A stretch of 32,000 nt of DNA, taken from contig NZ_CP011304.1 in NCBI RefSeq assembly GCF_000981785.2, positions 3,810,001-3,842,000 on the forward strand, written 5' to 3'. Position 1 is the stretch's first letter. Every line of letters starts with the position of its first letter. Both the position numbers and the translations under genes were made by a program. Under the pieces are notes generated by a model. That model did no database searches. It worked only from the letters and a program-made list of their open reading frames with translations, and had not been told where the DNA came from. This stretch comes from Microcystis aeruginosa NIES-2549. GTDB taxonomy: Bacteria; Cyanobacteriota; Cyanobacteriia; Cyanobacteriales; Microcystaceae. This document shows, in pieces, positions 3,228 to 23,586 of this stretch.

Positions 3228-3905
3228 CTACAGTGTAAGTTCGGAAGAACCATTATTTTTAGCTAGTTGACTAACAACCCATGCTCTTAAATTCTTTTCT
3301 GCCCTCACTTCATCCTCTTTAGCAGTGGCTAAAAATTCATAGAGTTTAGTTTTCGGAACTAGGGGAAAAGTAGGACTAAATTCTTCTTCCTGATAAACTC
3401 CCTTTTCTAACCGATAAATGCGCCAGATTTCTCCATTAAAACGCCATAATTCCGGCACTCCCAAACGGGCATAAAGTGCTAATTTATTAATATCCGTGTG
3501 GGTAATATCCACTTCCACCACTAAATCTGGGGGCGGATCTTCAGTTAAATTAATTGTTTTTCCTAGCACTTTGGCTTGATTTTGAATATAGTAAGCATTG
3601 TCGGGTTCTGCCCCTCGTTCTAAATCTTCCCTAGCTAGAGTTGTGGAACCCATACTTTTAATTTTTAAACCCAATTCTACCACCAAAATCCGAATAAATA
3701 ATCCGATTAATTCTCGATAAAACTCGTGTTCTTCTAGGGGCATAGTAATTTCTAAAGTGCCACGATCATAAAATAAATGGGCGCGATTATTTTCCCCTAG
3801 GGCTTGTAAAATTTGCCGATAGGATAACCAACTGAGATGATTAAAAACTACCCGTTTTTCGCCCCTAATTTGCTCAGTATTTAACTCCAGAGGAACTGTC
3901 ACCAT
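3228..3905 (-). CDS. Uma2 family (DUF820) PD-(D/E)XK endonuclease-like protein, tandem copy 1
   Basis: 225-aa ORF with typical Uma2 layout (LSWLSYRQIL, RAHLFYDRGTLEITMP, EPDNAYYI, PPDLVVEVDITHTD, LYARLGVPELWRF). GAGG sits 5 nt before the ATG. Confidence 0.85.
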   Translation of the reverse strand: MVTVPLELNTEQIRGEKRVVFNHLSWLSYRQILQALGENNRAHLFYDRGTLEITMPLEEHEFYRELIGLFIRILVVELGLKIKSMGSTTLAREDLERGAEPDNAYYIQNQAKVLGKTINLTEDPPPDLVVEVDITHTDINKLALYARLGVPELWRFNGEIWRIYRLEKGVYQEEEFSPTFPLVPKTKLYEFLATAKEDEVRAEKNLRAWVVSQLAKNNGSSELTL

Positions 3906-3912
3906 AATTACC

Positions 3913-4566
3913 TCAACTTTCAGCTAGTTGACTAACAACCCATGCTCTTAAATTCTTTTCTGCCCTCACTTCATCCTCTTTAGCAGTGGCTAAAAATTCA
4001 TAGAGTTTAGTTTTCGGAACTAGGGGAAAAGTAGGACTAAATTCTTCTTCCTGATAACCTTCCTTTTCTAACCGATAAATGCGCCAGATTTCTCCATTAA
4101 AACGCCATAATTCCGGCACTCCCAAACGGGCATAAAGTGCTAATTTATTAATATCCGTGTGGGTAATATCCACTTCCACCACTAAATCTGGGGGCGGATC
4201 TTCAGTTAAATTAATTGTTTTTCCTAGCACTTTGGCTTGATTTTGAATATAGTAAGCATTATCGGGTTCTGCCCCCCGTTCTAAATCTTCCCTAGCTAGA
4301 GTTGTGGAACCCATACTTTTAATTTTTAAACCCAATTCGGACACCAAAAAATAGATAAAACGTCCAATTAATTCTCGATAAAACTCGTGTTCTTCTAGGG
4401 GCATAGTAATTTCTAAAGTGCCACGATCATAAAATAAATGGGCGCGATTATTTTCCCCTAGGGCCTGTAAAATTTGCCGATAGGATAACCAACTGAGATG
4501 ATTAAAAACTACCCGTTTTTCGCCCCTAATTTGCTCAGTATTTAACTCCAGAGGAACTGTCACCAT
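3913..4566 (-). CDS. Uma2 family (DUF820) PD-(D/E)XK endonuclease-like protein, tandem copy 2
   Basis: 217-aa ORF near-identical to 3228-3905, offset by 661 bp. Differs in a 28-nt patch and in the C-terminal tail. Confidence 0.85.
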   Translation of the reverse strand: MVTVPLELNTEQIRGEKRVVFNHLSWLSYRQILQALGENNRAHLFYDRGTLEITMPLEEHEFYRELIGRFIYFLVSELGLKIKSMGSTTLAREDLERGAEPDNAYYIQNQAKVLGKTINLTEDPPPDLVVEVDITHTDINKLALYARLGVPELWRFNGEIWRIYRLEKEGYQEEEFSPTFPLVPKTKLYEFLATAKEDEVRAEKNLRAWVVSQLAES

Positions 4567-7819: not shown

Positions 7820-8665
7820 ATGAAAATTAATATTTTTCCCATCAGTCTGTTTTCTGGCATAAGTATAATTACACTGTGGGCTTTTCCCTCCCTTGCCGCT
7901 AGTTTATCCGTTGCCGAGCTATTTGTTAAGATAGAAAATTTTAACCGACCATCCCTAGGAGCTATTTCTAGGGGAAATAATCAAATAATTAATATTGCTG
8001 AGGATGGAATTAGTCAGACTATTTTGACAGGTTCCGCATTTTTCCAGTCAGATGCGCTGGAATCATTAGGACAAATTGAATTTACTAATCAAACTCTGGG
8101 TTTTGGGAGTAATTTTGTTGGTAGGGCTGATATTCAAGCTTCTCTAGGGAGTCTATTTTTTGTGCCAGCTAATCAAGCTTTAAGCTTCGATTTTAGCCTG
8201 TTCAGACAGCTATCTAATAGCCAAAGTGAATCGCAGTTAAATACAGTTAGTAGTGCCAGCAGATTTAACTTTTTTCTTGAGGAACAATCTCTCATAAACT
8301 CGGATAATAGTTCTGAAATTTTGCCTCGACAACTAGATATGTTAAACCAGATTAATAGCGGTTTATCGGCAAGTATTCCTGAGAATTATTCTAGGTTTTT
8401 GATCGGGAACAACATCACGATTAATAGTTATATGGAAAATATTATCTCTACGGATCAGCAGCAATTAGTGACCACATTATTAACGGGTTCTTTTCAGTGG
8501 ACAGCAATAAGAGATACTATGATTTTTTTGAGTGTCTCGGCTCAATCTTGCACCTATAGTTCTGATCAACCGCGCACTTGTGTGATTATCGCTGAACCCC
8601 GTTACCATGGCATAATTTTCTTCCTTATCATCCCTATTTTCCTCTTATTCCGAACGATAAAGTAA
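7820..8665 (+). CDS. secreted S/N/Q-rich hypothetical protein with PEP-CTERM-like C-terminal anchor
   Basis: 281-aa ORF. N-terminal signal peptide (MKINIFPISLFSGISIITLWAFPSLAAS). C-terminus IAEPRYHGIIFFLIIPIFLLFRTIK: an (A)EP motif, a hydrophobic helix and a basic tail. Confidence 0.6.
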   Translation: MKINIFPISLFSGISIITLWAFPSLAASLSVAELFVKIENFNRPSLGAISRGNNQIINIAEDGISQTILTGSAFFQSDALESLGQIEFTNQTLGFGSNFVGRADIQASLGSLFFVPANQALSFDFSLFRQLSNSQSESQLNTVSSASRFNFFLEEQSLINSDNSSEILPRQLDMLNQINSGLSASIPENYSRFLIGNNITINSYMENIISTDQQQLVTTLLTGSFQWTAIRDTMIFLSVSAQSCTYSSDQPRTCVIIAEPRYHGIIFFLIIPIFLLFRTIK

Positions 8666-9427
8666 ATAATTTAACTCATTGGTCAACCATTCAGAAAACA
8701 ATTTTTGTAAAATTTCCTGATGGATTTCCTCGGTTAATTCCGCAGGTAAAAATTCCAGCACCATTAGTAAATGATATTCTTCGTTAATTTTCACTGGTTG
8801 TATAATTTCTTTTGGTCGAGCTTGAAAAACGATACTGGAAAGACCAGAAGAGGATAACTGACCACGATAGATTATTCCTTCATAGCCACAATGTAAGCGA
8901 CGTTGTTCGTCTATATCGTAAAGATGGGCAGCTTGATAAAAGCTAATTTCTTCTTCTTCAATTTGATAAAAAACTTCCCAAGCTAATTTTTCGTAGGGAA
9001 TAACCAGACGATAAAGAATCGCTCGCTCAAAGTCCAGACGATTCTCGGCAAAATGTCGTTCTACCTCCCGGGAAAAAAGAGCCGTCGATAGTTTTTTTGT
9101 TAGTAAATCCCCTTGAATTCCCGCTTCCCAATCTTCGGGAGCGATCATCTGATCTGCTAACCAGGCCAAGGTATCACTGGCTTTTTCTAATCGTTTTTCC
9201 CGTCTTTGCTCGTCAGCGAGCGCTTGAATTTCTGCGGGTGTAACGCTAATATTATGCTCTTGGGCTGATTTCTTGATGATTCTTTGGTGCAGGATTTTTT
9301 GACAAATTTCCTTAAGCTGTAGCTGCTGTTTAAGAAACTTTTCTATGTCTATTAACTCGATCTTAATTCCATGAAAGTCAGGCATATTTAAAGATAGAAT
9401 CCGTTTAATTGTATGATCATAAATCAA
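8645..9427 (-). CDS. PpiC/SurA-like (parvulin-related) protein, putative peptide-maturation/chaperone component
   Basis: 260-aa ORF. SurA-N-like helical part (ITVTPAEIQALADEQRREKRL..., WLADQMIAPEDWEAGI) then a parvulin-like part (ILYRLVIPYEKLAWEVFYQIEEEEISFYQAAHLYD...GYEGIIYRGQL...EYHLLMVLEF). It is the last gene of the peptide locus. Confidence 0.55.
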   Translation of the reverse strand: MIYDHTIKRILSLNMPDFHGIKIELIDIEKFLKQQLQLKEICQKILHQRIIKKSAQEHNISVTPAEIQALADEQRREKRLEKASDTLAWLADQMIAPEDWEAGIQGDLLTKKLSTALFSREVERHFAENRLDFERAILYRLVIPYEKLAWEVFYQIEEEEISFYQAAHLYDIDEQRRLHCGYEGIIYRGQLSSSGLSSIVFQARPKEIIQPVKINEEYHLLMVLEFLPAELTEEIHQEILQKLFSEWLTNELNYLLYRSE

Positions 9428-9607: not shown

Positions 9608-9820
9608 TCAACTATTGGTAGTAATAGGCTGACCAATGGCAATACCAAAAGCCGTAATGAATCCCTGAGAAAAACTACCAATACGATTGTGACTGAAATC
9701 AAAGACAAATAAAGGTTGAAAACTTAGATCATTTAAAACCCATCCCTGCCCCTGAATACTCCCAAGATAAAGGGATTCAGTTTGGCAAAATTCCAAATCC
9801 CGAATTTTGATTTGACTCAT
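9608..9820 (-). CDS. leader-bearing small peptide precursor, paralog 5 of 5
   Basis: 70 aa. AAGGAG SD 7 nt before the ATG. N-terminus MSQIKIRDLEFCQTESLYLGS shares the I.DLE..E leader with its neighbours. Core is Gly/Ser/Phe-rich with no Cys. Confidence 0.7.
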   Translation of the reverse strand: MSQIKIRDLEFCQTESLYLGSIQGQGWVLNDLSFQPLFVFDFSHNRIGSFSQGFITAFGIAIGQPITTNS

Positions 9821-9840: not shown

Positions 9841-10086
9841 TTAGACAGGACTCATCGCATAGACATAACCAGCCTGAATAACATTCAGATAGGCGTAGTC
9901 ACTAGCTATTACACTTCCTGAAAATACCATTGATAAAGTACTGGGAGTTGAAGAAGCCTTAACTACTCCACTCAAATTAATCCAAGGGTTATGAACAATA
10001 AATCCCTGACCTCCAACAGGTGAACAGTTAGGAATTTTTTGATTTTGAGCCATTAATTCTAGATGCTCTAAATCGGTAATGATCAT
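9841..10086 (-). CDS. leader-bearing small peptide precursor, paralog 4 of 5
   Basis: 81 aa. MIITDLEHLELMAQNQKIPNCSPVGG then QGFIVHNPW.... GAGGA SD. 45 nt downstream of paralog 3. Confidence 0.7.
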   Translation of the reverse strand: MIITDLEHLELMAQNQKIPNCSPVGGQGFIVHNPWINLSGVVKASSTPSTLSMVFSGSVIASDYAYLNVIQAGYVYAMSPV

Positions 10087-10131: not shown

Positions 10132-10368
10132 CTATCCTATAGCCACCGCTTGATAAATAAAGGAGAAACCTGTAGTATAACCCTGGGGGGTAGCCGTAGT
10201 TAAAACTTGAGTTTCTCCACCGGCAATGCTGCCAAGGGAACCAACAACTAATGAATTAAATTTGAAATTAGCAATTGAAAAAGAGGGGATAACTACTATA
10301 CCTGAAGCTCCCTTTACTTCATAGGCTTGTTCGGTCATTTCCAAGTGTTCTAGATCGTTAATCAACAT
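10132..10368 (-). CDS. leader-bearing small peptide precursor, paralog 3 of 5
   Basis: 78 aa. MLINDLEHLEMTEQAYEVKGA then SGIVVIPSFS.... AAGGAGAAAAATT-ATG. Confidence 0.75.
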   Translation of the reverse strand: MLINDLEHLEMTEQAYEVKGASGIVVIPSFSIANFKFNSLVVGSLGSIAGGETQVLTTATPQGYTTGFSFIYQAVAIG

Positions 10369-10748: not shown

Positions 10749-11018
10749 CTACCCCCCCGGAGTAGTTGCCACGGCCGAAATTGAACTTGTGCTAAGGGCA
10801 AAACCAGGACCGGCCTCAACGGAGTTAGAAACATCGATACTCGCCGTTAGGGAACCGATAGCCGAAGAATTAATCCGACTTTGTACAAGACTGAAAATTA
10901 TGTCGTTAATTGACATATAGGCAACCTGATCTAAGTCGAAATCATCAAAATTTTGACCCCCGACAATTCCCTGCTTTCCGGTAGTCAGTTCAGAGAATTC
11001 TAAATTAATAATTACCAT
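10749..11018 (-). CDS. leader-bearing small peptide precursor, paralog 2 of 5
   Basis: 89 aa. MVIINLEFSELTTGKQGIVGG then QNFDDFDLD.... GGAG SD 10 nt upstream. Confidence 0.65.
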   Translation of the reverse strand: MVIINLEFSELTTGKQGIVGGQNFDDFDLDQVAYMSINDIIFSLVQSRINSSAIGSLTASIDVSNSVEAGPGFALSTSSISAVATTPGG

Positions 11019-11231: not shown

Positions 11232-11444
11232 TTAAACTAAACCTCTTGCCCGGGTGACGCTAGTGTATTCAATGGATTTAGAACCAGTTTCTGCGCTGAG
11301 ATCCAGAGTTTCTCGGCTAAAACCCCGAGCCAAAGCTTCACCAGAAATATCTAGACTTTTGCGGGAATAGAAAAAAGCACCGTTGCCTCCTTCGATATTT
11401 TTTTCAGAAACATTTTCGAGGTAGCTGATGTCGGAAATTAACAT
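11232..11444 (-). CDS. leader-bearing small peptide precursor, paralog 1 of 5
   Basis: 70 aa. MLISDISYLENVSEKNIEGG then NGAFFYSRKS.... AAGGAGAAAAACC-ATG. Confidence 0.75.
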   Translation of the reverse strand: MLISDISYLENVSEKNIEGGNGAFFYSRKSLDISGEALARGFSRETLDLSAETGSKSIEYTSVTRARGLV

Positions 11445-11547: not shown

Positions 11548-11671
11548 ATTTATTTCCTTGCTATATAAATTGGCAAAACTCATATATTTTGAAAAATATC
11601 CTCTGATTGGGCAAGATCGATTCATCTCTAAAATTGCTCAATCATGGAGTCAGTTGAAATTTATGACAACA

Positions 11672-11697
11672 AAGGTAGATAAAATCTTATCTACCTT
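11672..11697 (-). terminator. 10-bp-stem hairpin after HetP-like gene
   Basis: AAGGTAGATA-AAATCT-TATCTACCTT, 35 nt past the stop at 11732. It shares the AGGTAGA...TCTACCT core with the 11132-11165 hairpin. Confidence 0.5.
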
Positions 11698-11731
11698 GAC
11701 TATCCTCTCGAATTACTGGAATCATCGGCAC

Positions 11732-12070
11732 TTAAAACCAAGGAAGTTCCCGAAAACCGCCCTTGAGATTAGCCACTTCTGACTCAATTACTTTTACATG
11801 ATTCAAATCTCGGATGGCGAGGGAATTTATTTCCTCGGTTTTTGACGGCCCTTTGCGGGCGTTATCTTTAATCAATCGGTTATAGGTTCGATAGGGTATG
11901 TAATGGAGGGGATTGTAACCAGCGAAACGCAAAATTAACAGACAGGCCCAAGAATACTTGCCATTAAGAATCGCATCGACAATTTGGTCAAACTGTTCTT
12001 CTGTCATTGCTTTATCTCGTTTATTATTGGAATTACTGGGTAATTGAATCATTTTCCTCGTTTCTCCCAT
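11732..12070 (-). CDS. HetP-family protein with a C-terminal double-glycine-leader-like tail
   Basis: 112-aa ORF. EEQFDQIVDAILNGKYSWACLLILRFAGYNPLHYIPYRTYNRLIKDN matches the conserved HetP core as I remember it. GAGG SD favours the second ATG at 12052 (MIQLPS...). C-terminus is AIRDLNHVKVIESEVANLKGG-FRELPWF. Confidence 0.75.
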   Translation of the reverse strand: MGETRKMIQLPSNSNNKRDKAMTEEQFDQIVDAILNGKYSWACLLILRFAGYNPLHYIPYRTYNRLIKDNARKGPSKTEEINSLAIRDLNHVKVIESEVANLKGGFRELPWF

Positions 12071-12082
12071 TAAAAGTTGATA

Positions 12083-13744
12083 TTAAAGTGTCAGCCCATC
12101 CTGTTGTAGCTTTTTGAGCGGTTCTAATAAGACATCGATGATGCGACGACGACGGATAATAATCTCCGCCGTCCCGGTTTGTCCGGGTTTGAACGCCAGC
12201 GCTCCCTGACCGGGACGAGGGGAATCGCGATCGAGCAGAATCTCCACTTGATAGATCTCGCCTAAATCTTGATCGGTTCTGGTAGCGGTGGAAATCTTGC
12301 CAACTTTACCCCCAATCACGCCGTAATCTTGGTAAGGAAAAGCATCGATTTTCACCTGGGCCGTTAGTCCTGATTTGATAAATCCCGCTTCCCGATTGGG
12401 CAACTCGGCTAAGAGTACCAAAGGAACTCCTTCGGGGGCTACCTCGGCCAAGGTTTGACCGGCTTGCACCACCTCCCCTGATTTTTTCAGGTTGAGAGTC
12501 AAGATCACGCCATCGACTGGTGCTGTTAGATATTTTTGACGGAGTTGCTCCTGGGCTTTGGCCAAGAGGGTCTTATTTTCTCGTATACGAGCATCGATCT
12601 GGGCTATTTCTAGCTCGAGCGACGCTTTTTGTTTATTGGTCTCCAACTGCACCGCTTGCGCTTCTGCTCGCTTGCGACGCAATTCTGCCTGTAGTTGGGC
12701 GACTTCTTGGTAAGTTTTGGCTAATTCCCCTTGATTTTGGGTGATACGACTCTCTAGGTCGAGTAGGGATTGGGAGGCTTGGAAAATCTGCTCTTCGGCG
12801 TTATTGATTTCCTGTAATTGACTGATAGTAATCTTCTGTTCTGTCTCCCGCAGGTTTTGTTCGGCTTGAAAGAGCATCTCCAGGGAAATCGCCCCGTCGG
12901 CGGCTAAGGGTTTTAAACGAGCCACCCGCTCCTGATGGGCTTTCTTCTCCTCCTCTAGTTGGGCCGAGCGCCGGCTGGCTTCCCCGGAAAGGGGGTTTAG
13001 TTGCTGACGACGACTGCGATAGGCACTAGCTTGGGTTTTCTGTTCCCGCAATAATTGACGGATAGTGTCTAGTTTGCTTTCGGCAAGAGCGATCGCTGAT
13101 AATTGGGCTTTTTCCTCGGCTTCTGCGATCGCTTTTTGGGTGTCCTCCTGCAAATTTAGCCGCTCCCACAGGCCTCGTTTCTGAGTCTGTTCGATGTAGT
13201 TAGCGTTCAGGCTTTGTTGTAGGCGTTCTACTTCTTTTTGGGCAATTGTGGTGTCAATCTCGGCGATAATTTGTCCTTTTTTTACTTTATCCCCTTCTTT
13301 GACCTCTACACGGCTGATTTGACCCAATTCGAGGGGTTGAATTTTATAGGTTTCTCCCTGGGGAATTAATTTTCCCGTCGCCTTGCCCACTTCTTCGATC
13401 TGTCCGAACCATGCCCAGGTTCCGAAAATGACACAGAATCCCATTCCTGCCATCAATAGGCGTGTGGGTAGGGTGGCGGGGGGCTGATCGAGTAGGGTTT
13501 GTACGGGAGTTGACCAGGTGGTGGCGGAATGACCCGGAATCGGGGCGGCTACGGTGCTGAGAGGGGCGACTGCCCCACCACAAATCTGCTCCGCTTTTGC
13601 GGGAGAAATGGTGATTTCCCTCTCTTTGTCAGTTTCTTGTCCGACTTGGTTCGATTCAGGTAAATTGTTCATGGTATCTGCTGATAAGAGTGAGAGAGAC
13701 CCAGCAAAAACGGTCGCTGGCAAGTTGCTCTTAACTTTTGCCAA
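12083..13744 (-). CDS. HlyD-family membrane fusion / periplasmic adaptor protein
   Basis: 553-aa ORF (TTG at 13744; alternative ATG at 13672). One TM helix (LLMAGMGFCVIFGTWAWFG), a lipoyl-like motif (VKEGDKVKKGQIIAEID), a long coiled coil, and a beta-barrel tail (GLTAQVKIDAFPYQDYG). Confidence 0.9.
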   Translation of the reverse strand: MAKVKSNLPATVFAGSLSLLSADTMNNLPESNQVGQETDKEREITISPAKAEQICGGAVAPLSTVAAPIPGHSATTWSTPVQTLLDQPPATLPTRLLMAGMGFCVIFGTWAWFGQIEEVGKATGKLIPQGETYKIQPLELGQISRVEVKEGDKVKKGQIIAEIDTTIAQKEVERLQQSLNANYIEQTQKRGLWERLNLQEDTQKAIAEAEEKAQLSAIALAESKLDTIRQLLREQKTQASAYRSRRQQLNPLSGEASRRSAQLEEEKKAHQERVARLKPLAADGAISLEMLFQAEQNLRETEQKITISQLQEINNAEEQIFQASQSLLDLESRITQNQGELAKTYQEVAQLQAELRRKRAEAQAVQLETNKQKASLELEIAQIDARIRENKTLLAKAQEQLRQKYLTAPVDGVILTLNLKKSGEVVQAGQTLAEVAPEGVPLVLLAELPNREAGFIKSGLTAQVKIDAFPYQDYGVIGGKVGKISTATRTDQDLGEIYQVEILLDRDSPRPGQGALAFKPGQTGTAEIIIRRRRIIDVLLEPLKKLQQDGLTL

Positions 13745-14090
13745 GATAATTAATCTAGGGGAAAAAGAAACAATCTGGTGTTTCTTTAGGGATGTCTGTT
13801 GATCAAATCGCTTTCTTTTTACTGATCGAAGAATTTTAAGCGAACAATAAACAAGAACCAGTTAAGAATTATTTTTTGATCTATCTTGAAATCTCTAGCT
13901 TTCCCGATCCCCCATTTATGTATACTGGATGTAGTAAATGATAGATGGATATGGTGATTCTATCTTGGCTATTAAGTTATGCTCCACAAATAGATTATGT
14001 TCATGTTACCAGTTTTGTCAAGTATCAAAATAGTTAGTTATACACGAGTTAAATCTTAGCTATATTGTGGCTTATTCTAGAGAATTGCAG

Positions 14091-14105
14091 TTGCCAGAAT
14101 GGCAA
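14091..14105. promoter_or_regulatory. TTGCCA-N3-TGGCAA palindrome, copy 3
   Basis: TTGCCAGAATGGCAA is a perfect inverted repeat in the 895-bp spacer, ~350 nt upstream of the hlyD start. Confidence 0.4.
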
Positions 14106-14639
14106 TATAACTGTTAATTTTTCTGAAGCTTCACTTGGCAATAAAATGCAAAATTTCGATAATATCGGTGTTTTTAGACGAAAATTTTCGATTTTAACCT
14201 TAAAAATTGACCATAATCAAATAGTTTTATTTGAAAGAATGAGCAAATTCAGCTATATTTTCGTGGCTTGCCGAAAGTCTAACATCTGTCTCTAGGTCGA
14301 TATTTTTATCTATCAAATCATCGATGAAGAACAAATCAAAATATGTATACTCTGGCATTTACTGGTGGTGAAAAATACCGCTCAAGGGATTAAAAATATA
14401 TAAAATAGCCTCCCTTGGTTTAGTCTGGTTAAATGTAACCTAGAAAAACTTTTCTGTCATAACTGCACAGAAAAATTAAGAATACACCAGAGAGGTCCAA
14501 AGAACAGAGAGAGGAAGAGAAATTCGATGAGTAATACTGAATCCTTTCGAAAAGAACTATAAAAATGGAGAGTGGGGAGATGAGGGAGATAGGGCGTTAA
14601 GTTGGCATAGGATAGTACGATCTGGGCAGAAGGTGGTCG

Positions 14640-17600
14640 CTATAAATCCAATTGTTGGTGGGCGAGGTAATAGTACAACCCTTTTAAAGCCATTAAATCT
14701 TCATGGGTTCCCCGTTCCACCAAAAGACCTCGATCGAGAACCAGAATAGAATCGGCGTTGCGGACGGTAGAAAGACGATGGGCAATGATCAGGGTAGTGC
14801 GATCACGGGATAGACGAGCCAGATTGTCTTGAAAACGACGTTCCGATTCGGTATCGAGGGAACTGGTCGCCTCATCGAGGAGTAAAATTTTCGGATTACC
14901 TAACAGGGCCCTAGCGATGGCGATTCTTTGTCTCTGGCCGCCCGATAAATTCATCCCCCTTTCCCCCACCTTTGTATTGTAGCCGAGGGGGAGATTTTGA
15001 ATAAAAGCGTGAGCTTCGGCCAGTTTAGCCGCCTCTATCACCTCCTCTAAACTATATTCATGGCGATAAAGCCTGATATTGTCTAGAATCGTTCCCGAAA
15101 ACAGAAAACACTCCTGGGGAACAACTCCCATCTGGGCCCGCAAAGAAGTGGGCGAAACCTGAGTCAGATCATGTCCATCGATCCGAATAGTACCGCTATC
15201 GGGGTGATAGAGACTCTCTACCAGCTTGAATAGGGTACTTTTGCCCGAACCGCTGCGGCCGACCACCGCCACCGTCTCGCCTGGATTCACCGAGAAAGAA
15301 ATATTTTCCAAAACATTGCTCTCATCGCTGCTGTGGTAGCGGAAACTGACGGAATCGAAACAGATTTCACCGCGTAACCCCGGCAAAGTCAGCAGCGGGC
15401 GATCGCTAGTTTCTTCGGGGGTAGCGGAAAAAACATCGTCGAGACGTTCGATCGAGATTGTCACTTCCTGTAATTCATCCCAAAGATTGACCAGGCCCAA
15501 CACCGGACTGAGTACTTTACCGATCAACATATTAAAAGCGACGAACTGGCCGATGGTCAGTTGATTTTCAATCACCAGAGTGGCCCCGTACCAGAGTAAA
15601 GCGGTACTGCCAAGGGAGTGGATCGTGCCGCTGGCCGCCTGTAGATTAATTCCTAACTTTTGCCCCCGAAAACGGGCATTTAAAAAACCCGTCAGGTGTT
15701 CCTCCCAACGCCAGCGCAGTTCTCCCTCAGCGCCGAGGGATTTGACCGTGGCGATCCCGGATATGGTCTCGACGAGGGAAGAATTTTGTTGGGCTGCCTC
15801 GTTAAAGACCTCCCGGGATACCTGACGCAGGAAAGGGGTAGCAAATATAGTCAGCAAAGCGATGGGTGGGATTAAAGCGATAACCAGTAGGGTTAACTGC
15901 CAATTGTAGAAAAACATTAAACCCAGATAGACGAATCCCATCAAAAAATCTAGCCAAGCTAGGATGACCTGACTGACTAAAAAACGCTGGATTTTTTCAT
16001 TTTCGTTGACCCGGGTGATGATATCGCCCACATGACGGGATTCAAAGAATTTTAGGGGTAATTTGAGGGCGTGGCCGATAAAACCGCTAATCATTGTCAA
16101 GTCGAGACGGTTGGAGAGATAACTCAACCAATACTGGCGAATTGCCACCAGTCCCACACTCCAGAGTCCAAAAAGTAACACCCCGAGGGCAAAGACGTTA
16201 AGGGTGGAAAGGCTTCGATTGACCACCACTTTATCAAGGATAATCTGGGTAAATAGGGGCGTGATCAGGCCAAATAATTGAATTAACAAGGAAATCAGAA
16301 TTATCTGTAAGCCTAGGCCCCGGTAGGGGGACAAAAGCTGGAAAAAACGCTTAAAAGAGGGTTTATCGGTGGCGATTGTTCCTAAAATTGCCGTCGGTTC
16401 TAGCAAGAGAGCGTAACCCGTCCATCCCTGTAAAAATTGCTGACGGGAATAATAACGCTTACCTTGGGCGGGATCGGCCACTAATAGGCGATCGCCGCTG
16501 ACTGGATAGACGACAACAAAATGATCCCCCTGCCAGTGCGCTATCCAGGGATTTTTCTGTTCAAGAAGACGATTTAAACTGGCACGCACCGGTCGAGACT
16601 GATAACCGAGGGTTTCCGCCGTTTTTGCCAAATTTTTCAGGGATACGCCCGATCGCCCCACTCCCGCCAATTCCCTCAAGCTATTCAAACTCAAGCGTTT
16701 TCCCCAGTAAAGGCTAATCATTGCCAGACAGGTGGCCCCGCAATCGGCGGCACTTTGTTGTTCTAGCCAAGGATATTTCTGCCCGAAACGGAACCGCCGT
16801 TTTAAGGGTTTGGGAAAATCAACGGGCTGATTTTGGCTGGTAGGAGGACGCAGGGGGATAACATTGGACTTAGGGGCGGGATTAACTAGAATTTCAGCCC
16901 TTTTTTCCCGATTAATATCTTTTTTTTCAGCGGTTTCGGCAGGCAGATAGTATAAAACTACGTCGGTCGCCGTCACCCTGGCCGGAGGCGAGGAGGTGGT
17001 ATTATCCCAACTGTCACCGATGCTCATCCCCTCGATCTGTCCTTGCCGCAACCAATAGCGTCCTTTGGGAAGATGATCGAGAGTTTCCTGGGCCTGGAGC
17101 GATTTTTCCTGTAAATAGGGCAGAAAACTGCTAATTTTTGCACTAGATTCTGATTGGCAATCCGTTAGGGTTTTGAAAAAAATTAAGGTTTGGGTGTGTT
17201 TTATTTTCGAGTGCCACGCTTGTTGTAATTCGGGCAACGATTCTAAGAATTGCAGCAGCATCGGACGGGAAAGACGGGCTACAGTTACCTGACTGGCGGC
17301 AATCGGCGAGTAGAGAAGACTATCTTTAATAAATAGCGAATCTGCTCCGAAAACATCCCCTACTGTCAAGATTCCCCCAGATAGCCAACGTTTGTTACCT
17401 TGACCCAGTAATCGAACCCTTCCCTGACAGATCAAGTAAAAATCCTCGTTATTTTCCCTCCCCCCTCTCGCTTCGGGATCGCTATTGATACTATCTCCCA
17501 ATGAGAAATTAATCACTTGAAAAGACTCGCTCAAGGATTCTAGCAATTCGTTTTTATCTGGGGCAATTTTAGCCTGTTGTTGCAGTAAAGCTTTGATTTG

Positions 17601-21729: not shown

Positions 21730-22185
21730 ATGACTGTTATTCCCGACTTAAAAACTCTCTACGAGATTGATGATTCTCTCTGGTTAGAAGAAACTATCGA
21801 ACTCTTGAAAGCGAAAAAATTTGACGCTTTAGATTTAGACAATTTAATCGAGGAGTTAGAAGACTTGGGAAACGAAAAAAGGTTTCGTGTTGCTAGTTTT
21901 TTACAGCAAATTATTAGACATTGTTTATTATTACAGTTTTGGACAAGGGAAAGAGAATATAATCAGGCTCATTGGCAAGCAGAGATAATAAGTTTTCAAT
22001 ATCAGTTAAAGCGCTATTTAACCACAAATCTTCGCAAATATCTAGAACAGGAATTTGAGCAAATTTACTTTGAGTCCCTGCAATACGTTCGTAAAAAAAC
22101 TGATAATAAAGTCAACTTTCCTGATATTTGTCCCTACAGTTTAGAAGAACTTCTCGATCCTAATTGGCTACCACCTTACGAATAA
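21730..22185 (+). CDS. DUF29 family protein, array copy 1
   Basis: 151 aa. LYEIDDSLWLEETIELLKAKKFDALDLDNLIEELEDLGNEK...RH.LLLQFW....HW..EI pattern of DUF29. GGGGAGA SD. Confidence 0.8.
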   Translation: MTVIPDLKTLYEIDDSLWLEETIELLKAKKFDALDLDNLIEELEDLGNEKRFRVASFLQQIIRHCLLLQFWTREREYNQAHWQAEIISFQYQLKRYLTTNLRKYLEQEFEQIYFESLQYVRKKTDNKVNFPDICPYSLEELLDPNWLPPYE

Positions 22186-22196
22186 AGGAGATGATA

Positions 22197-22652
22197 ATGA
22201 CTGTTATTCCTGACTTAAAAATTCTCTACGAAATTGATGATTCCCTCTGGTTAGCAGAAACTATAGAACTGCTCAAGGCTAAAAAATTTGACGATTTAGA
22301 CTTAGACAATTTAATCGAGGAGTTAGAAGACTTGGGAAACGAAAAAAAGTTTCGTGTTGCTAGTTTTTTACAGCAAATTATTCGTCATGCTTTGTTACTG
22401 CAATTTTGGACAAGGGAAAGAGAATATAATCAAAGTCATTGGGAATCAGAACTGGTAAATTTTCAAGATCAATTAAATACCTACCTAACGGCAAGTTTAC
22501 GGAAATATTTAGAACAAGAATTTGATAATATTTATCAGAAGGCACTCCGTTATGTGAGAAAAAAGACCAACAATCAAGTCATTTTTCCCGATACTTGTCC
22601 CTACAGTTTAGAAGAACTTCTCGATCCTAATTGGCTGCCACCTTACGAATAA
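22197..22652 (+). CDS. DUF29 family protein, array copy 2
   Basis: Start chosen at ATGACTGTT (MTVIPDLK), 6 nt after AAGGAG, by homology to copy 1. The track's upstream extension MATTLRIKEMI overlaps the end of the previous gene. Confidence 0.8.
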   Translation: MTVIPDLKILYEIDDSLWLAETIELLKAKKFDDLDLDNLIEELEDLGNEKKFRVASFLQQIIRHALLLQFWTREREYNQSHWESELVNFQDQLNTYLTASLRKYLEQEFDNIYQKALRYVRKKTNNQVIFPDTCPYSLEELLDPNWLPPYE

Positions 22653-22663
22653 AGGAGATGATA

Positions 22664-23119
22664 ATGACTGTTATTCCCGACTTAAAAACTATCTACGAGA
22701 TTGATGATTCCCTCTGGTTAGCAGAAACTATAGAACTGCTCAAGGCTAAAAAATTTGACGCTTTAGACTTAGAAAACTTAATCGGGGAGTTAGAAGACTT
22801 GGGAAACGAAAAAAAGTTTCGTGTTGCTAGTTTATTAGAGCAAATTATTAGACATTTTTTACTCCTACAGTTTTGGACAAAGGAAAGAGCATATAATCAG
22901 GATCACTGGGAGTTAGAAATAGTCAACTTTCAAATTCAGCTAAAAAGAGGCTTAACCACCAATCTCCGTAATTATTTACAAAATGAATTAACCAACATTT
23001 ATGAAGATGCAGTTTTCTTTGTGCGGAAAAAGACAAAGAATAAAGTTATTTTCCCTGATACTTGTCCCTACAGTTTAGAAGAACTTCTCGATCCTAATTG
23101 GCTGCCACCTTACGAATAA
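22664..23119 (+). CDS. DUF29 family protein, array copy 3
   Basis: Same junction TAAAGGAGATGATAATGACTGTT; 151 aa. Confidence 0.8.
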   Translation: MTVIPDLKTIYEIDDSLWLAETIELLKAKKFDALDLENLIGELEDLGNEKKFRVASLLEQIIRHFLLLQFWTKERAYNQDHWELEIVNFQIQLKRGLTTNLRNYLQNELTNIYEDAVFFVRKKTKNKVIFPDTCPYSLEELLDPNWLPPYE

Positions 23120-23130
23120 AGGAGATGATA

Positions 23131-23586
23131 ATGACTGTTATTCCCGACTTAAAAACTATCTACGAGATTGATGATTCTCTCTGGTTGGAAGAAACCATCG
23201 AACTTTTGAAAGCAAAAAAATTTGACGCTTTAGATTTAGAGAATTTAATCGAGGAGTTAGAAGATTTGGGAAACGAGAAGAAGTTTCGTGTTGCCAGTTT
23301 TTTACAGCAAATTATCAGACATTGTTTATTATTACAATTTTGGCCAAGGGAAAGAGAATATAATCAAGGTCATTGGAAAGCAGAGATCGTGAGTTTTAAA
23401 GATCAACTAAAACGTTATTTAACCACGAATCTTCGTAAATATCTGGAGCAAGAATTTGATAATATCTATGAAGATGCAGTGCGATACGTTCGTCAAAAAA
23501 CCGATAATAAAGTCAACTTTCCTGATATTTGTCCCTACAGTTTAGAAGAACTTCTCGATCCTAATTGGCTACCACCTTACGAATAA
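23131..23586 (+). CDS. DUF29 family protein, array copy 4
   Basis: Same junction; 151 aa. Confidence 0.8.
   Translation: MTVIPDLKTIYEIDDSLWLEETIELLKAKKFDALDLENLIEELEDLGNEKKFRVASFLQQIIRHCLLLQFWPREREYNQGHWKAEIVSFKDQLKRYLTTNLRKYLEQEFDNIYEDAVRYVRQKTDNKVNFPDICPYSLEELLDPNWLPPYE

Follow-up and report, generated by a model that had tools for sequence, protein, structure and literature searches.

A HetP-like protein of Microcystis aeruginosa NIES-2549 carries an internal leader-like double-glycine segment and may be a substrate of the C39 peptidase exporter of its own cluster

HetP-like proteins adjoin cyanobacterial bacteriocin clusters, and genome mining has grouped 13 of them as 'HetP' precursors with the putative cleavage motif KIxDLxYLEx10GG (Wang, Fewer & Sivonen, 2011; PMC3140520). 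Figure S1 of that study contains alr2818, the HetP protein of Anabaena, where ...IHGG precedes a 40-residue tail that starts NLDQWL..., together with PCC8801_3266 (...VAGG/FRYFWW) and cce_2677 (...IHGG/FRLQLWQF); cleavage at the motif was tentatively ascribed to the M16 peptidase of the 'group II' clusters (PMC3140520). The same HetP-type class and motif were used again by Micallef et al. (2015; PMC4558948). Here we analyse a HetP-like open reading frame (ORF) of Microcystis aeruginosa NIES-2549, located in a 32,000-nucleotide stretch of contig NZ_CP011304.1 (positions 3,810,001 to 3,842,000). This whole stretch is called the window below, and all positions refer to it. The predicted protein ends in a leader-like segment with a double-glycine (GG) motif that is followed by only seven residues, FRELPWF, and its gene lies in a cluster with an exporter that contains a C39 peptidase domain. 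An earlier note on this DNA took the link between HetP proteins and export substrates to be undescribed. This was mistaken, since the 2011 study had defined HetP-type precursors, alr2818 included, and the 2015 study had reused the class. The window protein is a new sequence within that class, and the sequence observation as such is not new.

The best studied relatives are HetC and HetP of Anabaena/Nostoc PCC 7120. The window exporter has the same architecture as HetC, a cyclic nucleotide monophosphate (cNMP)-binding domain followed by C39 and ATP-binding cassette (ABC) domains (HetC according to PMC10986499), and Anabaena HetP shares with the window protein both the HetP domain and the motif (alr2818 reads SKIKDLAYLEVVGKQTTEIHGG, then the putative cut, then NLDQWL...). 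In Anabaena hetC and hetP are adjacent and genetically linked. Unlike the window, Anabaena has no hlyD between the two genes and no other GG-leader genes nearby (PMC10986499), its HetP tail has 40 residues instead of 7, and the role of HetP and HetC there is heterocyst commitment, whereas the window holds no heterocyst genes. Deletion of the hetC peptidase domain is fully rescued by 3-4-fold over-expression of hetP (Corrales-Guerrero et al., 2014; PMC4133259), which indicates a shared pathway. A 2024 study of HetC named identification of the substrate as the next crucial step; it found no gene with a characteristic leader near hetC, yet suggested HetP-derived peptides as a possible export (PMC10986499).

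Like the HetP-type precursors, the window protein combines a HetP domain, the motif with its exact spacing and a short tail, and its gene lies near a long-type C39-ABC exporter, an HlyD protein and a SurA/rotamase gene. It consists of four parts: a three-helix HetP domain, a disordered K/S/N-rich linker, an internal signal (IxDLxHVK, ten residues, L-K-G-G) and the aromatic tail FRELPWF (Table 1). Family membership is clear from the match to NCBIfam NF037966 (122 bits against a cutoff of 45, residues 12-70), and homologues bear the precomputed annotation PF28069, the HetP family in Pfam. All invariant columns of the HetP core GKYSWAC..L.....GYNP..YIPYRTYNRL are kept (A33, G37, Y39, S40, W41, A42, C43, L45, L47, G51, P54, P59, T62 and R65). 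AlphaFold2 places the three helices of the domain at residues 24-35, 39-49 and 60-71, with a predicted local distance difference test score (pLDDT) of about 90. A Foldseek search of the PDB with the domain model returned no significant match (best E=1.5), so the fold yields no functional clue. Residues 72-112 are modelled with low confidence and are probably disordered, so that the leader-like segment should be accessible. The linkers of homologues are 15-41 residues long, rich in K, S, Q and N, and contain no Trp.

The earlier note had reported a C-terminal GG followed by FRELPWF, and the translation bears this out exactly: positions 11735-11818 of the minus strand encode AIRDLNHVKVIESEVANLKGGFRELPWF, the C-terminal end of the HetP-like ORF, which divides into AIRDLNHVKVIESEVANLKGG and FRELPWF with the GG directly before the tail. 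The C-terminal stretch reads EINSLAIRDLNHVKVIESEVANLKGGFRELPWF and, with two more upstream residues, makes up the C-terminal 35-mer. Within the segment, A-I-R-D-L-N-H-V-K is followed by ten residues and GG, which is exactly the spacing of KIxDLxYLEx10GG. I, D, L and GG are identical to the published motif. Its Y and L are replaced conservatively, by H and V, while A in place of K and K in place of E are non-conservative changes. Compared with the motif of Wang et al., the window box shows degeneracy at three letters: A replaces K, H replaces Y and V-K replaces L-E.

Conservation of the segment was followed in two sets of sequences. The close set comprises the query and its 120 best homologues (121 sequences). 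The diverse set holds the best 150 of the 304 HetP family members that an exhaustive search of 1.84 billion cluster representatives returned, as representatives clustered at 50% identity. Of the close sequences, 115/121 have the motif downstream of the HetP domain and before the C-terminus, 109 of them with ten residues between box and GG. About 60% of the 150 diverse members carry the GG module (a loose pattern finds it in 87, a stricter one in 76, and there are a few near-misses besides), and those that lack it are mostly short forms of 63-120 residues that end soon after the HetP domain. Counting back from the cut, the family-conserved positions are -20 (I/L/V), -18 (D), -17 (L), -15 (Y/H), -14 (L/I/V), -13 (E), -11 (L/V/I), -4 (V/I/L), -3 (K/R) and -2/-1 (GG). 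V, I or L occupies -4 in 101/109 family sequences, and the window protein has L-4, G-2 and G-1.

Could such a segment be a functionless GG stretch that resembles a leader by accident? Short motifs can arise in this way, and when the last 46 residues of the protein were shuffled 200,000 times a loose version of the motif appeared in 297 shuffles (0.15%), but the strict version appeared in only 2. The motif stands in the same place in 115/121 close and 76-87/150 diverse sequences, and a leader profile built independently (see below) detects the segment. The conservation data already refute chance, to which we assign next to no probability; judged by sequence, the segment is more than a chance resemblance.

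The segment also matches the leaders that small genes of such clusters encode. Comparisons were made with 47 loci from GTDB species genomes, picked by similarity to the query and hence neither random nor phylogenetically independent. In the window and 24/47 of these loci, 59 small ORFs (57 without two artefacts) start M-[IL]-I-x-D-L-x-[YH]-[LI]-E-x7-12-G[GAS]. The earlier note had seen that the five small ORFs downstream of the HetP-like gene share a box with the HetP-like segment, and I.DL..LE is indeed present in them. A hidden Markov model (HMM) was trained on 50 distinct N-terminal precursor leaders from related loci, with the window left out, and searched against 1644 ORFs of at least 40 residues from the 47 loci and the window. 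Beyond the precursors themselves, its matches were essentially confined to HetP-like proteins, at the internal segment near their C-terminus; four further matches outside the precursors had less than 5 bits and E>1. In the window HetP-like protein it found residues 85-105 with 15.0 bits (E=8.6e-4 for 1644 ORFs), comparable to the scores of two window precursors (19.7 and 19.3 bits). The two groups share the IxDLx[YH][LI]E box, the hydrophobic-x-G[GA] end and the same clusters. They differ in that the precursors start with the leader at Met1, have a spacer of mostly 8-9 residues instead of 10, and carry cores of 45-90 residues that are rich in Ala, Ser, Gly and Tyr and unrelated to HetP tails. 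By these matches, the HetP-like protein bears an internal copy of the export signal of its own cluster (IxDLxYLE...V-x-GG type).

On the minus strand the gene order is PCAT (a peptidase-containing ABC transporter), hlyD, HetP-like, five precursors and PpiC-like, so that the C39 exporter does lie two genes upstream, as the earlier note had it. Its Cys (DCGATCL), His (HFVVVY) and Asp (VADP) align in register with those of PCAT1 (4RY2, 7N87), LahT (6MPZ) and ComA, and in this alignment the catalytic triad is intact. The hlyD stop codon lies 12 nucleotides upstream of the listed HetP ATG. Conserved neighbours in the 47 loci are HlyD (44), the long cNMP-C39-ABC exporter (38) and the PpiC-like accessory protein (31), and hlyD is directly upstream of the HetP-like gene in 37. 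All 31 assessable GG-bearing HetP genes, including two that the regular expression missed and that were scored by eye (L026 and L038), lie 14-174 nucleotides downstream of hlyD on the same strand with a PCAT nearby, and independent metagenome contigs show the same gene order. Most of the related loci belong to cyanobacterial lineages that we take to be non-heterocystous.

We propose that the HetP-like ORF encodes a 'HetP-type' substrate of the PCAT of its own cluster, and give this proposal about an even chance of being correct. The cytoplasmic C39 domain of the cNMP-C39-ABC exporter would bind the leader-like segment and cut after Gly105; the heptapeptide FRELPWF would travel through the ABC/HlyD conduit; and the HetP domain, with linker and leader, would remain cytoplasmic and have its own function, linked to the exporter/HlyD system. 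Binding, cleavage and export, and an activity of either product, are what we infer from the sequence. A precedent for the first steps is LahT150, a C39 domain that cleaves precursors carrying N-terminal maltose-binding protein (MBP), requires just the last 13-14 leader residues, holds positions -4, -7 and -12 in a hydrophobic groove and is indifferent to the sequence after the cut (PMC6363468). Since it accepts MBP-fused precursors, an internal leader behind a folded domain would by analogy be mechanistically acceptable. The window residues at the three groove positions are L, V and V, but -15 is H. The earlier note had matched L-4, V-7, E-8 and V-12 to the classical leader consensus, which holds for this protein and its closest relatives; family-wide only -4 and the GG are conserved. 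Its suggestion that the protein is an exporter substrate is partly supported. That it is a substrate of C39, or is at least recognized by it, is supported by the motif, the identity with the precursor leaders, the hlyD linkage, the triad and the LahT precedent, but the idea of the HetP domain as a 'giant leader' is weakened by a clade of 85-92-residue proteins described below.

Several observations weigh against cleavage and export. The segment is internal, with a folded domain in front of it and its first residue at 85 out of 112, whereas classical leaders are N-terminal, and a cargo of seven residues is very short for a PCAT. In most family members -7 and -12 are not hydrophobic (-7 is mostly S/Q/E, -12 mostly E/V/P/S); the hydrophobic positions that are conserved family-wide are -11, -14, -17 and -20. 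The spacer has ten residues in 95% of HetP proteins but eight or nine in most precursors (45/59) and ten in only 4/59, so HetP may be handled differently from the precursors. A permutation test over 24 loci found no significant locus-specific co-variation between HetP leaders and the precursor leaders of the same locus (p = 0.11, 0.26, 0.07), and an artefactual self-match (L014) had inflated even this non-significant signal. A clade of 85-92-residue HetP proteins without GG, leader, linker or tail keeps the PCAT-hlyD-hetP position (L012, L020, L023, L057), so the module is dispensable for the role of the HetP domain there. In Anabaena, the polar localization of HetP fused to green fluorescent protein (GFP) is unchanged in the hetC peptidase-deletion strain (PMC4133259), and the literature searched holds no experimental evidence for cleavage or export of any HetP protein.

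Some of these observations fit a different role of the segment, namely docking without productive export. The segment would tether the HetP domain to C39 in a regulatory, competitive or gating interaction by which, for example, the export of the five genuine precursors is sensed or throttled; the tail would touch the membrane or the translocation cavity, and cleavage would be slow, conditional or absent. A HetP spacing fixed at ten residues, against seven to twelve in the precursors with modes at eight and nine, would suit this, as would the module-less clade, whose retention in the same locus marks the HetP domain as a conserved partner of HlyD/PCAT. The position-specific conservation right after the GG, unlike the sequence tolerance of LahT150, and the concentration of HetC-GFP and HetP-GFP alike near the heterocyst poles (PMC4133259) point the same way. 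Set against docking are the independence of HetP-GFP localization from the HetC peptidase domain, the lack of anything in the sequence that would block cleavage, and a near-invariant GG (82 GG, 4 GS and 1 GA among the diverse module carriers), as expected of a scissile site, though a fit into the active-site cleft would need GG too. We regard docking as possible but rather unlikely.

The GG-less forms bear on the HetP domain itself. Four of them are hlyD-linked (L012, L020, L023, L034) and nine are not. The 85-92-residue clade ends in a conserved basic ...CDRARQKVS and stays in place without the module. The HetP domain therefore has a module-independent role in these cassettes, which speaks against its being merely a giant leader. 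In Nostoc spp. (L042-L047) the HetP-like proteins are GG-less as well, with 80-89 residues (...GFFQLESTWFQQ...), and their genes are convergent to hlyD/PCAT; these clusters also hold M16 peptidase pairs, a HopA1-like protein and an APH-type kinase, an arrangement that matches 'group II' of Wang et al. In one further locus (L040:7760-7984) the HetP-like frame runs on into a 235-residue ORF with a tail like a helix-turn-helix (HTH)/transposase fragment (…GIKVMSEITGMHSDTIRRG…); this gene is probably disrupted by an insertion element.

The Nostoc clusters are relevant to the enzyme. Cleavage at the HetP motif by an M16 (insulinase-type) peptidase instead of C39 follows the suggestion of Wang et al. 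(2011; PMC3140520), and M16 genes are present in some HetP-containing clusters; besides L042-L047, this holds for metagenome contig L051, in which about 8 kb separate M16 genes from a GG-bearing HetP. The M16 protein cluster, however, occurs in only 5/47 genome loci, its representative comes from a Nostoc locus, and HetP-like proteins of the M16-bearing Nostoc loci lack the GG motif, so that M16 and the motif do not travel together there. None of the GG-bearing genome loci in the sample has an M16 gene, so C39 is the sole peptidase of those clusters. The motif moreover equals the leaders of co-clustered GG precursors, which are textbook C39 substrates. The window encodes no peptidase other than C39, M16 included, which leaves C39 as sole candidate, unlike in the assignment of Wang et al., and would make it the parsimonious enzyme. 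We therefore reject M16 as the processing enzyme at the window locus, where none is encoded, M16 going with GG-less Nostoc-type clusters, and think it very improbable as the enzyme that cuts at the HetP motif.

The tail has conserved features of its own. In the nearest relatives it reads FREFPWF, FRDIHWF, FRDVRWF, FRDIRWF or ARNFWWI. Tail length runs from 1 to 47 residues (median 16) among close homologues. In the diverse set, where the median is 22, tails reach 88 residues and 5/76 have eight or fewer, so the window heptapeptide sits at the short end of the range. Trp accounts for 6.3% of the residues in tails and 0% of those in linkers, and Phe for 8.2% and 0.8%. Trp occurs in 87/115 tails, with the same trend in the diverse set, and is the commonest residue at +5 and the second commonest at +6; Arg is found at +2 in 51/114 tails. 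These counts define a conserved minimal tail motif that is new here, Arg at +2 and Trp or another hydrophobic residue at +5/+6, and FRELPWF (R+2, L+4, W+6, F+7) is essentially this proximal motif and ends with it. Residue-specific conservation right after the cleavage site is unusual for PCAT cargo and suggests a function of its own for either the short peptide or an uncleaved C-terminus.

Such an uncleaved C-terminus might serve as a membrane anchor. The aromatic/basic tail of the intact protein would be a membrane-interface anchor or localization signal and the GG a hinge after an amphipathic helix, and the likeness to leaders would stem from common descent (fusion of an old short HetP with a downstream precursor gene), not from current recognition. 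The order hlyD, hetP, precursor genes makes a read-through fusion easy, tails are rich in Trp, Phe, Leu and Arg, and HetP-GFP is partly membrane-associated and polar in Anabaena (PMC4133259). A relic, on the other hand, would not hold eleven conserved positions, the GG and a fixed spacing in about 60% of a family at <50% identity; seven residues are too short for a stable anchor, and the long tails of other members turn acidic or polar beyond the first 6-7 residues. We consider a membrane anchor improbable.

The protein is also built like the Nif11-type (N11P) and nitrile-hydratase-type (NHLP) long-leader precursors (Haft et al., 2010; PMC2887384), in which a domain-sized N-terminal part is joined through a double-glycine site to a short C-terminal product and which are processed by C39 domains such as LahT/ProcT. 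The window protein differs from them in having no Nif11 or NHase homology (Pfam and NCBIfam scans gave HetP as the sole family match) and in that its domain is conserved alone, without leader or core, in short paralogues and the 85-residue clade. N11P/NHLP leaders are not known to stand alone in this way. With classical PCAT substrates (ComC/ComA, BlpC, colicin V/CvaB, CtA/PCAT1) the window protein has in common GG at -2/-1 and a hydrophobic -4, here also -7 and -12, and a cognate exporter with a catalytic C39 domain and an HlyD-type adaptor. The products known from the classical PCATs include short signalling peptides. Unlike in classical substrates, the HetP leader is internal, has a bipartite IxDLxYLE box + V-[KR]-GG in place of LSxxELxxIxGG, and precedes a cargo of seven residues.

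Table 1. Positions of the HetP-like gene, its parts, the surrounding cluster and selected ORFs of related loci (handles L001 to L057 and P0036 to P0122 denote loci and proteins compared)
Feature	Position	Strand	Basis or remark
HetP-like ORF	11732..12070	(-)	112 residues as listed; probably 106 residues from ATG at 12052
HetP domain (residues 12-70)	11861..12037	(-)	NCBIfam match; holds the invariant residues of the family; AlphaFold2 three-helix bundle
Low-complexity linker (residues 71-84)	11819..11860	(-)	pLDDT about 50, predicted disordered
Leader-like segment AIRDLNHVKVIESEVANLKGG (residues 85-105)	11756..11818	(-)	translation; motif spacing; leader HMM; GG codons 11756-11761
Tail FRELPWF (residues 106-112)	11735..11755	(-)	translation; putative released/exported peptide
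PCAT exporter, 1006 residues	14640..17660	(-)	Pfam cNMP_binding (N-terminal), Peptidase_C39, ABC_membrane, ABC_tran
C39 peptidase domain (exporter residues 295-423)	16392..16778	(-)	Pfam PF03412, 130 bits
hlyD, HlyD-family periplasmic adaptor	12083..13744	(-)	TIGR01843 type_I_hlyD, 244 bits; Pfam HlyD_3
Precursor peptide 1, MLISDISYLENVSEKNIEGG, cut, ...	11232..11444	(-)	leader regular expression, x8 spacing; leader HMM E=1.6e-8
Precursor peptide 2, MVIINLEFSELTTGKQGIVGG, cut, ...	10749..11018	(-)	leader regular expression, x9 spacing
Precursor peptide 3, MLINDLEHLEMTEQAYEVKGA, cut, ...	10132..10368	(-)	leader regular expression, x9, GA for GG; leader HMM E=2e-5
Precursor peptide 4, MIITDLEHLELMAQNQKIPNCSPVGG...	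9841..10086	(-)	leader HMM E=4.3e-5, box region only
Precursor-like peptide 5, MSQIKIRDLEFCQTESLYLGSIQGQG...	9608..9820	(-)	box, no GG at usual spacing; weak leader HMM match E=2.3
PpiC/SurA-like rotamase-domain protein	8645..9427	(-)	Pfam Rotamase; weak match to TIGR04500 peptide-maturation family
Candidate intrinsic terminator, 11-bp hairpin + U-rich tract	11672..11697	(-)	35-60 nucleotides after HetP stop codon
Best sigma-70-like promoter match TTGACA-16-CATAAT (11/12)	13994..14021	(-)	consensus scan only; spacer upstream of hlyD
GG-less clade members	L012:7431-7613, L020:10001-10198, L023:3134-3331, L057:10001-10261		proteins P0036, P0050, P0078, P0083, P0085, P0122
DLEF/DLEY-class ORFs elsewhere	L001:10698-10970, L005:16552-16869, L014:7597-7923, L017:15334-15642, L028:15429-15749		

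The HetP-like ORF, with its stop codon at 11732-11734 on the minus strand, probably starts at the second ATG (12052), because the first (12070) is not conserved: it is AGG in metagenome contig L048, where the copy starts at the second ATG with a GGAG-type ribosome-binding site and has 106 residues. In the window, GAGGAAAA stands before the second ATG, and the gene calls in L048-L050 have 106 residues. The choice of start leaves the C-terminus unaffected. L048, the sole DNA relative compared, is 97% identical to the window HetP-like gene, with one change in the tail (L to F). Copies this similar come from metagenomes only; the closest named relative is a protein of Pannus brasiliensis (Chroococcales) with 64-66% identity. 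A plus-strand ORF that overlaps the tail (11558-11782, TTG start, 74 residues) was taken for a mechanical ORF and rejected, since it is the frame on the minus strand that hundreds of homologues conserve.

The hairpin behind the HetP stop codon has a predicted RNA fold of -17.3 kcal/mol (z = -2.3) and a sequence identical in L048. It may be a terminator that divides hlyD-hetP from the precursor genes; a consensus terminator scan did not pick it up. The 0.9-kb spacer between the exporter gene and hlyD (13745-14639) contains no long ORFs, and gaps of about 0.5-1.2 kb are found at the same place in L048, L052, L053 and L057. The best promoter match lies within this spacer (minus strand, 14021-13994), so hlyD-hetP may be transcribed as a unit of its own. 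A scan of the entire window against Rfam gave no matches.

Scans of the five small window precursors against Pfam and NCBIfam likewise gave no matches; related peptides on other contigs are labelled PF28158 'CTB' in precomputed annotation. The last small ORF of the array has a 'DLEF/DLEY' version of the box (MSQIKIRDLEFCQ..., MFIHDLEFID..., MIIHDLEFFN...) and no GG at the usual spacing. Together with the ORFs listed from other loci it looks like a distinct conserved peptide class, and its window copy immediately precedes the PpiC-like gene. A plus-strand gene (7820-8665), convergent to that for the PpiC-like protein, encodes a 281-residue protein with a signal-peptide-like N-terminus and an end ...IIAEPRYHGIIFFLIIPIFLLFRTIK that resembles a PEP-CTERM-type sorting signal. 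Weak relatives of its product are found in 8 related loci (25% identity, pairwise E=0.006; e.g. L020:2027-2857 on the minus strand) and end in VPEP, a hydrophobic helix and basic residues.

Elsewhere in the window, four tandem paralogues of about 151-162 residues are encoded at 21730-23586 on the plus strand; they are 80-84% identical, each overlaps the next by 22 nucleotides, and none has an NCBIfam match. On the minus strand are a gene for a 475-residue protein with an N-terminal TIR domain and an FGE-sulfatase (formylglycine-generating-enzyme-like) domain (1481-2908) and two adjacent genes for Uma2-family (putative restriction endonuclease) proteins of 225 and 217 residues (3228-4566).

HetC is a peptidase-exporter that is required for heterocyst differentiation, and its physiological substrate is still reported as unidentified (PMC10986499). 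The HetP motif next to hetC was recorded in the supplement of the 2011 genome-mining study, and the developmental literature seems to have missed it; the value of the present analysis is that it directs attention to this existing but neglected hypothesis. We tentatively suggest, as a speculation, that HetP is an export-coupled switch with two outputs: an active, cNMP-regulated PCAT (HetC in heterocyst formers) would cut HetP at its internal GG, free the domain as a cytoplasmic regulator and export the Arg/Trp-rich tail as a signal. HetP would then be the physiological substrate that has long been sought for HetC. The adjacent hetC and hetP of Anabaena would be what is left, after loss of hlyD, of an ancient PCAT-hlyD-hetP cassette widespread among cyanobacteria without heterocysts, and FRELPWF would be a minimal version of the exported extracellular or periplasmic signal. 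The window locus probably shows the arrangement in its ancestral context, with exporter, HlyD, HetP, GG precursors and rotamase and a HetP tail of seven conserved residues, and offers a simple, minimal system in which to ask whether C39 cuts HetP and whether the tail is exported. Should C39 not cut HetP, something else, for instance docking or regulation, would have to account for the conserved motif; should it do so and the tail be exported, a cytoplasmic commitment factor would be tied to a secretion event.

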